The position numbers were made by a program, and so were the translations under genes. Shown piece by piece: positions 750-27,494 of a DNA stretch of 38,190 nt. Position 1 is the first letter of the stretch. Each line of letters starts with the position of its first letter. The DNA comes from an uncultured Dehalococcoidales bacterium (GTDB lineage Bacteria > Chloroflexota > Dehalococcoidia > Dehalococcoidales > Fen-1064): assembly GCA_964354765.1 (NCBI GenBank), contig CAYHBE010000001.1, positions 1-38,190 of the forward strand, written 5' to 3'. Under the pieces are notes generated by a model. That model was not told where the DNA came from, made no database searches, and was given only the letters and a program-made list of their open reading frames with translations.

Positions 750-918
750 GCGTATCCTCTAATTACTATGTGAGATATTATAAAGTGACCAAGCGATTCG
801 TTATCCTAAATCCGCCTCTTTTTTTCATATGGTTATACTAGTCATCCCCTTGTCCTCATCGGTCTGGCTGATATTTAGCTTCAAAGTCACTATTTCAACT
901 CAATTCGAAGCCATCTGT

Positions 919-1170
919 CTAGGCTTCCTTTGATAAAGCCGTGGTGATAAAAGTAGTCACTTCTGCCTTACTGGGTAGACGTCCGGAAACAACAAGTTTT
1001 TCATTAATTACTAAACCAGGTGTAGCGAGTATGGGGTATGCCATGATCTTCTTGATATCCTTCACTTTTTCCACAGTGGCATCGATGGCGAGATCCTTGA
1101 TTACCTCACGGGTAATCTTCTCGAGCTGATCGCACTTAGCTCAACCCATGCCGAGTACCTTGATTACCAT
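919..1170 (-). CDS. Small thioredoxin-fold protein of the redox-active disulfide protein 2 type, with an in-frame TGA (1141-1143) at the first CxxC position. Candidate selenoprotein, 83 codons.
   Basis: My own translation: MVIKVLGMG-[TGA]-AKCDQLEKITREVIKDLAIDATVEKVKDIKKIMAYPILATPGLVINEKLVVSGRLPSKAEVTTFITTALSKEA-TAG. SD AGGAGG at 1178-1183, 7 nt before ATG 1168-1170. The sequence on both sides of the TGA matches the short GxGCxxC thioredoxin-like family. The ORF track shows only the antisense shadow ORF 941..1129. Confidence 0.65.
1089..1123 (-). promoter_or_regulatory. SECIS-like stem-loop 17 nt 3' of the in-frame UGA
   Basis: The mRNA (complement, 1123->1089) can fold as CGAGA-A-GAUUACC-CGUGA-GGUAAUC-AAGGA-UCUCG. 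That gives a 7-bp perfect upper stem, a 5-nt apical loop containing GU, an internal loop and a 5-bp lower stem. The distance and shape fit bacterial SelB-binding elements. Confidence 0.5.
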
Positions 1171-2919: not shown

Positions 2920-3915
2920 TCAACTGAATTGTACTCCAAAAATCACCTTGATAAAGTAGACGATGGCCGGAGAAATAAGTGACGCTAGCAGCTGGCGAAG
3001 TATAGAAGCGGTGTAAGGCCAATCATGAATGCTCCGCACATTGGCTTCGTATGTCCCCCAGGCTGTAACCTCGGAAAATACAGTCTCATCTGTCTCCTCC
3101 GCTCCGAGTGAGCTCGACCCTCGCATCTTGCGGAAGGCTATTGTAAGTTTTTCCTGTGCCGCATTAAGCTCTCGCTGTTTGACCCGTAGAATCGCGTTGT
3201 GGGTGCTTAGCATGGAAGAGAAGAAAATCAGGATAGTAGTGACAATGAGGATGCCATATACAGAGATACTGATGGCATTAAGAAGACTATCGTATGGCAC
3301 AAAAATCAAACTGATGGTGATACCGCCAATGAATGCCAGTGAGACACCCAGACTCCACTTTGCCACCGGCGACAGTAGTTCCAGATTGAAGATATCCAGG
3401 TACTGGATCGAACGCGTCAACCGCGTCAGGTTGCGAACACCGCGCAACCCCGTGTAAACCAACCAGCCAAGCAGTCCTATCATCGTAAATTGGGTGACTA
3501 AACGGTACCACTCGAACCATCCATCGGGCCAACCGTCCCAGGTATGCGAAATCACCACTATAGTTCCGATAGATGCTAAAGCTGTCCCTGATTCTCGCCA
3601 GCGGTCGTTTTTAGTCAGATCCGTTATCAGCTTTTCTTTGAGCTTACTATCTTTTATGAGAGGGAACAGAGTATTAATCGCTCGATTCCAGTAGCCGTTT
3701 ATTATCGGGCTGACCAAGATAATGTATATGATGATTGTAGGTGCCTGCACGCTGCCGCGCCAGAATTCCCAGTCCATTTGTCTGAAAGTGATCCGGTCGA
3801 GCAGCGCCGACCCGACGAGTAAAGCCAGCAGGATTACAGCAAGGAGCATAATCCCTGCGTATCGCATTCGACCTGATCGCGGCATTTTCTCGATAATAGC
3901 TGATTTTACACGCAA
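2920..3915 (-). CDS. Hypothetical multi-pass membrane protein with a C-terminal coiled-coil-like segment
   Basis: 331 aa ORF with several hydrophobic helices. I recognise no motif. TTG start at 3915 is preceded by AGGAAA; alternative ATG starts lie 10 and 16 codons in. Confidence 0.55.
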   Translation of the reverse strand: MRVKSAIIEKMPRSGRMRYAGIMLLAVILLALLVGSALLDRITFRQMDWEFWRGSVQAPTIIIYIILVSPIINGYWNRAINTLFPLIKDSKLKEKLITDLTKNDRWRESGTALASIGTIVVISHTWDGWPDGWFEWYRLVTQFTMIGLLGWLVYTGLRGVRNLTRLTRSIQYLDIFNLELLSPVAKWSLGVSLAFIGGITISLIFVPYDSLLNAISISVYGILIVTTILIFFSSMLSTHNAILRVKQRELNAAQEKLTIAFRKMRGSSSLGAEETDETVFSEVTAWGTYEANVRSIHDWPYTASILRQLLASLISPAIVYFIKVIFGVQFS

Positions 3916-21627: not shown

Positions 21628-22072
21628 ATCTATCTCCGATCACCCGCATTTTAACATCATCATACTGTTTGGACAAACTGTATTTAAATATGTATCATTC
21701 CATCATCTCCAGAGCACTTTTATTACCATCTAAGGCGATTGGTACTTTAGTAATAGAATTCAAGCTTGACAATTAGCCGTTCAGGGGGACTTTTCATTGT
21801 CCACTGGCAACCCCAATCTATTGATGAGAGAACTGATAAGAAAGGAAGTATTTAAGAGCTATTGAATTGGAACGAAGGAGTTTTTTCCCACTGAAAACTG
21901 CTAGAATTACTCGGCAAATCTCTTGCCTTGTTAACGAAAAGCGTATTATCCTAGTTATCGTTGCTTGTTAACACCGGAATCCGCAAATAAATTTCACCAG
22001 ACCGTAAGATATCTCCGGCGAAGCTATTTTTGTGTTTTTTTTGGTATCTGCGGTTGTGGTTTAGGTTTTTAT
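21628..22072. other. Candidate replication origin / dnaA upstream region
   Basis: A 445-bp non-coding gap upstream of dnaA. Thirteen consecutive complement-strand genes lie to its left and three plus-strand genes to its right. Only degenerate DnaA-box-like 9-mers are present (TTGTCCACT 21797-21805, TGTGGTTTA 22055-22063). Confidence 0.3.
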
Positions 22073-23389
22073 ATGAATACTCGTTCTGCCCAGGAAATCT
22101 GGGAGACTGCTCTTGGCGAGTTGCAGATAGAAGTCAGTAAATCGAATTTTTGCACCTGGTTCATAAAAACAACTGGAATCAGATTCGAGAACAGCAAGTT
22201 CTCGATCGGCGTGCCTAATACGTTCGTAGCCGAATATCTCGAACAAAACCAGTACTCTTTAATAGAAAGAGTCCTTGCAGGAGTTACTCACGCAGAAGTA
22301 AATCTTGAGTTTCAAGTCGTTAACGGTAACAAACAAAACGTTGCCGAACAAAGCAGGCTCCCTCTTTTTAATCCGCGTTACACTTTCGACAACTTCGTGG
22401 TAGGTAATTCTAACAATCTTGCTTATGCCGCTGCCATGAAAGTCGCCGAACATCCTGGCGAAAATTTCAATCCGCTCTACATTCATGGCAGATCCGGACT
22501 TGGCAAAACTCACCTGCTCCATGCTATTGGCAGCCACGCAGCCAAAAATAACCTTAAAGTCATGTGTGTTAGCGCGGAGCAGTACACCAACGAACTCGTC
22601 ACTTCTATCCGTGAAAGGACGACTGATGAATTCCGTCACAAATTTCGCACTGTCGATTTACTGTTATTAGATGACATACAGTTCTTCACCGGGAAAGAAC
22701 AAACGGAAGAGAGCTTCTTCCATACCTTCAACGAACTCCATGGCAATAACCACCAGGTTGTCATCACAAGCGATCGACCTCCTAAGGCAATCACCGGTAT
22801 CAAGGACCGCATGTTATCGCGCTTTGAGTGGGGACTGGTGGCTGATCTTCAATCTCCCGACTTTGAAACGAGGATTGGCGTTCTGAAGGCAAAATCGCAC
22901 CGTGATGGTATCGAACTCAAGGATGATGTCCTCGAATTCCTTGCCTTACAGGTAAAAGAGAACATCCGCGCATTAGAGGGATCGCTAAACCGCGTTATTG
23001 CCTATGCAAAAATGCTACATACTCCGATCACAACTGGTGTCGCCGCGCGTGCAATTGACAATCTTGCATCTACGAGGATAGCCATGGCACCGGTAACACC
23101 GGGTTATATCATGGAGACGGTGGCCGGCTTTTATCAGCTTACCCTTTCGGATATCAAAGGACGCCGTCGCGACGAAGCCACGACTCTTGCGCGTCAAACA
23201 GCGATGTACCTCATGCGGGAGGAAACTGAATGTTCACTGGCTGATATCGGTAAAGAAATAGGCGGGCGCAGCCCTGCAACCATTAGCTATGCCTATGATA
23301 AAATGACAGCTGCTCTTAACAATGATTCTCGACTTCGACGCAGGGTTGTGGATATCCGGCAGAAACTGCATCCTCCGCTGAGTAATTAA
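22073..23389 (+). CDS. dnaA: Chromosomal replication initiator protein DnaA
   Basis: 438 aa from the ATG at 22073 (MNTRSAQEIWETALGELQ.., the canonical DnaA N-terminus). AAA+ Walker A GRSGLGKTHLL, LLLDDIQF, and a C-terminal DNA-binding domain. The 36-codon TTG extension in the ORF track is rejected. Confidence 0.9.
   Translation: MNTRSAQEIWETALGELQIEVSKSNFCTWFIKTTGIRFENSKFSIGVPNTFVAEYLEQNQYSLIERVLAGVTHAEVNLEFQVVNGNKQNVAEQSRLPLFNPRYTFDNFVVGNSNNLAYAAAMKVAEHPGENFNPLYIHGRSGLGKTHLLHAIGSHAAKNNLKVMCVSAEQYTNELVTSIRERTTDEFRHKFRTVDLLLLDDIQFFTGKEQTEESFFHTFNELHGNNHQVVITSDRPPKAITGIKDRMLSRFEWGLVADLQSPDFETRIGVLKAKSHRDGIELKDDVLEFLALQVKENIRALEGSLNRVIAYAKMLHTPITTGVAARAIDNLASTRIAMAPVTPGYIMETVAGFYQLTLSDIKGRRRDEATTLARQTAMYLMREETECSLADIGKEIGGRSPATISYAYDKMTAALNNDSRLRRRVVDIRQKLHPPLSN

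Positions 23390-25544: not shown

Positions 25545-27494
<1,950 letters not shown>

Follow-up and report, generated by a model that had tools for sequence, protein, structure and literature searches.

Proteins of the MTH895/ArsE family (TIGR00412, PF13192, structure 1ILO) are thioredoxin-fold proteins of 75-85 residues with a GxG-CxxC active site, and their genes are placed directly after those for an ArsP_1-family permease and an ArsR regulator. Here we describe a gene of this type, termed Trx_3(Sec), in a 38,190-nt stretch of DNA from an uncultured Dehalococcoidales bacterium (contig CAYHBE010000001.1, assembly GCA_964354765.1), in which the first Cys of the CxxC motif is replaced by an in-frame UGA that is very probably recoded to selenocysteine (Sec). 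The whole stretch is called the window below; L-numbers denote loci and P-numbers database proteins of the comparison set. Trx_3(Sec) resembles the MTH895/ArsE family in full-length homology, in size, in the position of the active-site motif, and in its placement behind the permease and regulator genes. It differs from the family in the presence of Sec for the first Cys, which was seen in none of the 40 CxxC members that were sampled via the permease in other phyla, and in a hairpin resembling a selenocysteine insertion sequence (SECIS) that lies inside the codons for helix 1. The window cluster also lacks the DGC-domain gene found in many clusters with Cys forms.

On the functional side, the closest analogue of the Trx_3(Sec)/permease pair is, as judged by likeness of domains and gene adjacency, the SaoT/SaoE pair from the SAO locus, whose name stands for selenocysteine-assisted organometallic. 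There SaoT, a thioredoxin-like protein of about 85 residues that is often of the UxxC type, is encoded beside SaoE, an ArsP-family permease that carries the motif CSC (Haft and Gwadz, bioRxiv 10.1101/2022.07.06.499078). The similarity of Trx_3(Sec) to SaoT (NF040730) spans the full length but is weak (E 0.0074), with 16 bits against a cut-off of 65, and the window permease attains 110 bits against the cut-off of 325 for SaoE (NF040736). When compared with the nine-gene SAO neighbourhood, the window has no SaoL, SaoP, SaoA, SaoB, SaoX or SaoC genes and differs in both lineage and operon type (ArsR, Trx, CcdA). An identity with SaoT was hence rejected, as the score lies far below the cut-off and there is no SAO neighbourhood.

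The Pfam domain of Trx_3(Sec) is shared by the Brachyspira selenoproteins Sec.1 and Sec.2, which were likewise missed by annotation. In the Brachyspira forms Sec resides in a short N-terminal extension (CxU or UxC) outside the thioredoxin CxxC, and one form is devoid of the CxxC altogether (PMC5330540), whereas Trx_3(Sec) has no such extension, its domain begins with the first residue, and Sec is predicted to be the CxxC nucleophile itself. The classical UxxC thioredoxins and glutaredoxins (PF00085, PF00462), listed in Table 1 of PMC13188914, have Sec at the N-terminal Cys of the CxxC and a bacterial SECIS (bSECIS) just downstream in the coding region. Relative to these, Trx_3(Sec) belongs to another thioredoxin-fold family, is much smaller, and sits in a dedicated metalloid-type operon. 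In so far as it is covered by text searches and parts of its Table 1, the inventory of 2026, with its 119 families of prokaryotic selenoproteins (PMC13188914), refers to PF13192 only for the Brachyspira forms and leaves TIGR00412 and MTH895 unmentioned; BSepDB and RefSeq were not queried directly, so an earlier annotation elsewhere is possible.

Identification of the gene and its family

Conceptual translation of 1170->919 on the minus strand yields MVIKVLGMG, then the in-frame UGA, then AKCDQLEKITREVIKDLAIDATVEKVKDIKKIMAYPILATPGLVINEKLVVSGRLPSKAEVTTFITTALSKEA, which ends in SKEA ahead of the terminal stop. The motif GMG-U-AKC occupies residues 7-13 of 83 and represents the GxGCxxC motif with U for the first Cys. 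When U is replaced by C, the 83-residue product matches the Pfam Thioredoxin_3 domain (PF13192) over 75 of 76 model positions (E 9.4e-26, 90.1 bits, cut-off 24.8) and the NCBIfam model TIGR00412, 'MTH895/ArsE family thioredoxin-like protein', with 99.1 bits (cut-off 62). It also matches the solved structure of MTH895 (1ILO, M. thermautotrophicus) with E 1e-15, the TGA column coinciding with the first Cys of CANC; because this match spans the full length, the fold and the active-site column are fixed. By score, size, motif and neighbourhood, the predicted protein is assigned to TIGR00412/PF13192.

A first-pass annotation of this DNA had proposed the frame, the position of the TGA and the spacing of the Shine-Dalgarno sequence, all of which are reproduced by the translation, and its family call, with the TGA on the N-terminal catalytic Cys, agrees with the Thioredoxin_3, TIGR00412 and 1ILO matches. 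It had also stated that there is no usable start until residue 43; this has to be corrected, since translation could formally restart at the GTG of codon 33, and open reading frame (ORF) finding gives only the 51-residue fragment at 919..1074.

Conservation of the UGA and selection on the downstream frame

A protein search with the U-to-C product returned 1462 matches. Among the best 120 of these 1462, which served for the comparison of orthologues that the first-pass annotation had suggested, the TGA column is occupied by Cys in 115 and by Trp in five, and the Trp-bearing relatives include the two closest matches (95% and 82% identity). The DNA of all five (P0001, P0002, P0029, P0058, P0073; loci L053-L060) in fact reads TGA, so that the 'W' fits a gene call made with genetic code 4. 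Such a 'W' in a conserved Cys column of proteins from short contigs is a usable flag for missed selenoproteins in general.

Metagenomes were further scanned with the pattern GGNTGAGCNAARTGYNNNCARNTNGARAA, in which the amino acids are fixed, the third positions are free and the hairpin is not touched. The scan produced 16 matches, two of them by chance; the remaining 14, on contigs additional to those of the closest-clade five, are Trx_3(Sec) genes with TGA at codon 10, an AGGAGG-type Shine-Dalgarno sequence, an ATG start and a frame of 81-88 codons. The total Sec-form set thus stands at 17 distinct DNAs and 14 distinct proteins (81-88 residues) on 22 contigs, the window included, from many independent samples. 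These proteins are 63-95% identical to the window protein, and every gene has the Shine-Dalgarno sequence, the ATG, the full-length frame and the TGA. Published work on selenoprotein recognition asks for at least 10 examples with 100% TGA (bioRxiv 10.1101/2022.07.06.499078); the Sec-form set provides at least 10 examples, 100% TGA, similarity through the UGA and consistent length. In a neighbour-joining tree, which rests on about 80 residues and is of low resolution, 12 Sec forms fall together with a single Cys form in one clade, and two more Sec forms lie near the base. Among 52 species-representative genomes that span several phyla and were picked by their homologous permease, without regard to Trx_3(Sec), 41 have a Trx_3 gene just downstream of the permease; 40 of these genes encode CxxC, and TGA occurs in none. 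In the data seen, the Sec form is confined to one subgroup of the Dehalococcoidia.

The frame beyond the UGA is under strong purifying selection. Over codons 11-80, the ratio of nonsynonymous to synonymous substitution rates (dN/dS) against the 95%-identical relative (L053) is 0.054. Comparisons with more distant Sec forms give proportions of synonymous differences (pS) of 0.63-0.86, at which synonymous sites are near or at saturation, and of nonsynonymous differences (pN) of only 0.07-0.22. Over all Sec-form comparisons, dN/dS is 0.03-0.11 where dS is measurable, and pN ranges over 0.02-0.22 against 0.27-0.86 for pS. Codons 11-32 specify the conserved helix 1, Cys13 included, and their product lines up with the Cys forms and with MTH895 residue for residue. 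The low dN/dS and the conservation of codons 11-32 render a pseudogene or a division into two ORFs untenable. A decaying downstream frame, which the first-pass annotation had named among the signs that would speak against recoding, is not seen in the Sec forms, where the frames are intact.

RNA-level constraint and the SECIS-like hairpin

The mean third-position entropy of the Sec forms is 0.53 bits over codons 10-24 as against 1.27 bits over codons 25-80, whereas in the Cys forms (five distinct DNAs) the corresponding values, 1.00 and 1.02 bits, reveal no dip. The five 15-codon segments of lowest entropy in the Sec-form gene all begin at codons 8-12. Arg21, Glu22 and Val23 are invariably encoded by CGT, GAG and GTA in the Sec forms, and these codons account for 17%, 37% and 21% of their respective codon families in the window; Cys forms use AGA, CGA, CGT or AAG in the Arg21 column and GAA or GAG in the Glu22 column. 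We conclude that a constraint acting at the RNA level, and specific to the Sec forms, spans the interval from the UGA to the hairpin, as a coding-region bSECIS predicts.

The hairpin GAUUACC-CGUGA-GGUAAUC is the centroid structure of its segment. The published bSECIS model (PMC13188914) comprises a loop of 3-9 nt, an upper stem of 4-16 bp, a G in the first two loop positions, a spacing of 16-37 nt and a minimum free energy of at most -7.5 kcal/mol. The geometry of the hairpin agrees with it in the 5-nt loop, with G second and then U, in the 7-bp stem and in the 30-nt spacing, and the minimum free energy is -15.2 kcal/mol for the segment that runs from the UGA to +60, though -6.5 kcal/mol for the hairpin by itself. 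Perfect 7-bp hairpins with loops of 3-9 nt occur 21 times per 38-kb strand, which by our own arithmetic translates to a chance of about 1% that one falls 16-37 nt after a given UGA. Neither the loop CGUGA nor the two C-G pairs that close it vary among the Sec forms, CCCGUGAGG is likewise invariant, and 92% of the stem cells pair across the Sec forms, compared with 1-54% when partners are slid. The stem is recovered by RNAalifold, no other structure being conserved throughout the Sec forms, and it is missing from the Cys form that groups inside the Sec clade. One stem position has undergone a compensatory change, being U-A in the window clade and C-G in the others (ATT/ATC vs ACT/GTC), and there is also a change from A-U to G-U. 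We infer that SelB binds at the stem 1117-1099.

The hairpin drawn in the first-pass annotation survives in part: its upper stem and loop are those kept in all Sec forms, but the extended lower stem CGAGA/UCUCG was rejected, since its pairing is limited to the window and orthologues do not share it. A separate small stem with the UGA in a triloop, GGY-UGA-GCN (alignment columns 20-39; 1151-1132 on the minus strand), was also returned by RNAalifold; it is probably not meaningful, since its pairs largely follow codon constraints and one of them varies freely.

Weighing of alternative interpretations

We hold Trx_3(Sec) to be a genuine bacterial selenoprotein gene in which the UGA at 1143-1141 is recoded to Sec, with a probability of roughly 0.88. 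Other conserved in-frame TGAs in this cluster of sister contigs (see below) speak for it as well, as does the lineage. The preference of the first-pass annotation for recoding over a nonsense mutation is borne out by the conservation of the UGA in all Sec forms, the selection on the frame and the constraint on the hairpin zone. Conversion of TGC or TGT to TGA does take only a single base change, most homologues have Cys, and the neighbouring ThiS-like gene in the window has truly decayed, all of which might point to a pseudogene, or else to a sequencing error. Yet the same TGA in 17 distinct sequences from many independent samples, behind a conserved Shine-Dalgarno sequence and ATG and within an intact frame with a dN/dS of about 0.05, makes this extremely improbable, and the protein identities of 63-95% exclude a single contaminating sequence as the source of all the contigs. 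Very improbable, too, is termination at the UGA to give a 9-residue peptide, with restart at the GTG of codon 33 to give 51 residues, or leaky reading of the UGA by a near-cognate tRNA without selenium. While the GTG-initiated ORF does exist and public gene callers annotate such truncated products, no Shine-Dalgarno sequence precedes the GTG, the 51-residue fragment is without the active site, and the preceding codons 11-32 encode the conserved helix with Cys13 described above. The reading of UGA as a standard amino acid (Trp under code 4 or Gly under code 25), to which the five database entries with W at the Sec position might lend colour, is refuted by stop usage, and we assign it a negligible probability: TGA terminates eight of the 34 well-supported window genes, which makes UGA a normal stop of the standard code here, and TGG is used for Trp 156 times. 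Moreover, when the window was scanned in read-through mode for further genes divided by a TGA, nothing convincing emerged apart from the decayed ThiS-like remnant, the lineage is that of the Dehalococcoidia, and a Trp or Gly in place of the nucleophilic Cys of the CxxC would inactivate a thioredoxin-fold redox site.

A different kind of doubt attaches to the hairpin. Sec might well be inserted at the UGA, with the element at 1117-1099 not being what SelB binds; in that case the hairpin would be conserved under some other constraint, such as codon context or translation speed, and the true SECIS would be different or non-canonical. Several observations weigh against our interpretation on this point. 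The folding energy of the 76-nt segment is unremarkable (z = -0.87), and the stability of the hairpin alone is modest (-6.5 kcal/mol). Covariation is weak, being limited to one pair with scores not above those of shuffle controls, and the stem carries an A-C mismatch in L063, L064 and L075 (-2.2 kcal/mol) and an A-A mismatch in L065 and L067. The Cys forms carry partial versions of the stem, and the pairing is partly supplied by the protein sequence, as codons for Thr (ACN) are complementary to those for Val (GUN). The suppression of synonymous variation begins at the UGA itself (codons 10-18), upstream of the stem, and about 13% of catalogued bacterial selenoprotein genes have no canonical SECIS (PMC13326102). 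No Rfam match to SECIS was obtained with the whole window at the gathering threshold, nor with 880-1220 at E<=10, where only tRNA-Val and chance matches appeared. Against these stand the status of the hairpin as the sole structure kept across all Sec forms, the use of minority codons to keep its loop and closing pairs invariant, its fit to the bSECIS geometry (PMC13188914), and the absence of the structure from the Cys forms, that inside the Sec clade among them. On balance, we consider it unlikely that the hairpin is not the SelB-binding element.

The selenocysteine reading is likewise weakened by what the available DNA lacks in decoding machinery. Pfam/NCBIfam annotation of about 30 ORFs identified no selA, selB or selD in the window, nor were these found in the related contigs, the whole genome not being covered; with ARAGORN, neither the window nor any of 11 related contigs yielded a tRNA-Sec, the sole window tRNA being that for Val. 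The same annotation identified housekeeping genes close to the replication origin (DnaA, GyrB, MutL, GltX, HisS, RelA and others), with GyrB being 90% identical to proteins from Dehalococcoidales/Dehalococcoidia metagenome-assembled genomes. Two Dehalococcoidia genomes of this kind, which have 46 and 49 selenoprotein genes, belong to the top ten of BSepDB in this respect (PMC13326102), and the Sec trait is thereby established in the class. The lineage novelty suggested in the first-pass annotation accordingly falls away.

Genomic context and predicted function

The coordinates of the gene, its RNA-level features and its neighbours are collected in Table 1. On the minus strand, the order is ArsR, ArsP_1 permease, Trx_3(Sec), exported thioredoxin and CcdA, with Trx_3(Sec) as the third gene. 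The same order, often with the addition of a DGC-domain gene, recurs around Cys forms and other Sec forms, and L070 and L071 are syntenic with the window from uvrD onward.

Table 1. Features of the Trx_3(Sec) locus, with positions in the window
Feature	Position	Strand	Remarks
Trx_3(Sec) gene, MTH895/ArsE-type (Thioredoxin_3, TIGR00412)	1170->919	-	83 codons; predicted active site G-M-G-U-A-K-C; stop TAG at 921-919
In-frame UGA, codon 10, predicted to be read as Sec	1143-1141	-	Aligns with N-terminal Cys of CxxC; TGA in 17/17 distinct orthologous DNAs
Shine-Dalgarno AGGAGG	1183-1178	-	7 nt before ATG at 1170; AGGAGG/GGAGG equivalent ahead of every orthologue
Zone of suppressed synonymous variation, Sec-form-specific	1143-1099	-	Codons 10-24, third-position entropy
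SECIS-like hairpin	1117-1099	-	7-bp stem GAUUACC/GGUAAUC; apical loop CGUGA (1110-1106); loop starts 30 nt past UGA
ArsR/SmtB metalloregulator, ECCVCEV motif	2739-2356	-	
ArsP_1-family permease, TPFCSCS motif	2262-1258	-	Immediately upstream of Trx_3(Sec), same operon
Membrane-anchored or exported thioredoxin, CIPC	749-342	-	Downstream in cluster; syntenic in Sec-form contigs
CcdA/DsbD_TM thiol-disulfide transporter, 5' part	341-1	-	Runs off window start
Decayed ThiS-like remnant	838..898	-	Internal deletion of ~235 nt; intact in sister contigs

The pairing of the ArsP_1 permease with Trx_3 is tightly kept in Pseudomonadota, Bacillota, Bdellovibrionota and Chloroflexota, and in 41/52 genomes no more than a few tens of nt separate the start of Trx_3 from the stop of the permease gene. 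Between uvrD and arsR, the window also encodes a 331-residue multi-pass membrane protein (2920-3915, minus strand) with no Pfam or NCBIfam match; its homologue in L070/L071 is about 88% identical and seemingly frame-shifted at the 5' end. Farther away, a non-coding gap (21628-21964) lies upstream of dnaA (21965-23389), with gyrB at 25545-27488, and the window probably includes the replication origin. As the window spans the dnaA/gyrB region, the Sec gene is chromosomal rather than located on a mobile element.

In Pseudodesulfovibrio mercurii, an operon of ArsR, ArsP, ArsE (PF13192) and DGC genes is arsenic-induced (bioRxiv 10.1101/2022.10.17.512643). The position of Trx_3(Sec) as third gene in a metalloid-type operon leads us to predict a metalloid-related role. 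We envisage that a complex of SelB, GTP and Sec-tRNA(Sec) would bind the coding-region hairpin and deliver Sec to the ribosome at the UGA, and that the product would be an 83-residue thioredoxin-fold protein of the MTH895/ArsE type, its redox centre being U-A-K-C. If other UxxC proteins are a guide, the nucleophilic attack would come from Sec, which would be joined to Cys13 in a selenenylsulfide. Most likely, the protein would reduce or pass on a thiol-reactive (organo)arsenical or a similar soft-metalloid substrate, or else maintain the CSC motif of the permease in the reduced state. To go by context and thioredoxin-fold chemistry, its most likely role would be that of a selenol/thiol oxidoreductase at the service of either the permease or the thiol-reactive metalloid substrate of the latter.

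Further candidate selenoproteins in sister clusters

Sister contigs have an intact copy of the ThiS-like gene that has decayed in the window, located between Trx_3(Sec) and the exported thioredoxin (L070:4957-5268 and L067:5442-5759; Pfam ThiS, E 0.0012, below the cut-off). The intact version ends in EYQPG-TGA-TGA-GQGDG-TAG, after which comes a conserved hairpin, GGCUA-GUA-UAGCC. The homologue in the Cys-form genome L001 ends in NPRCC, and the alignment brings U-U into register with C-C. The ThiS-like protein of the sister contigs is hence a candidate Sec-Sec protein.

In addition, ORFs of 105-125 codons with conserved in-frame TGAs occur right after Sec-form Trx_3 genes: L063:2836-3183, L063:2509-2835 and L064:800-1195, all on the plus strand. 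Two contigs share the motif IIIGDGR-U-E-U-GGGKG.TRAVI, and a paralogue has VEGGS-U-P-C-ESGMIRAVI, the similarity extending about 80 residues past the TGAs. These U-x-U/U-x-C ORFs have no Pfam or NCBIfam match and only four database homologues, all of them truncated to the part after the TGAs. They possibly represent an uncatalogued selenoprotein family. Neither these two candidates nor Trx_3(Sec) turned up in the parts of Table 1 (119 families) of the 2026 review that were consulted (PMC13188914). We tentatively raise the idea, which we consider rather doubtful, that the Sec-form ArsE/MTH895 is part of a Dehalococcoidia-specific, selenium-assisted metalloid-handling cluster with up to three selenoproteins per operon, analogous to SAO and distinct from it.

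Conclusions

The replacement of Cys by Sec at the nucleophile of a CxxC motif in a Sec-using anaerobe is the commonest type of selenoprotein discovery, and the understanding of Sec decoding is unchanged by the present case. Nothing is new in the principle, in the lineage or in the type of operon; the first-pass annotation had itself cautioned as to the first of these, Sec-containing thioredoxin-like proteins being known from other anaerobes. What the predicted selenoprotein adds to the bacterial selenoproteome is a UxxC subfamily of TIGR00412/PF13192. Its recognition also corrects the annotation of a gene for which ORF finding yields only a 51-residue fragment, and in whose five database relatives the Sec position has been filled with Trp.

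More generally, the locus links the use of selenium to an ArsR/ArsP/ArsE-type cluster in the Dehalococcoidia, a class of anaerobes abundant in sediments and aquifers. If it is true that the protein acts on arsenicals, the availability of selenium could affect the handling of arsenic in these environments.

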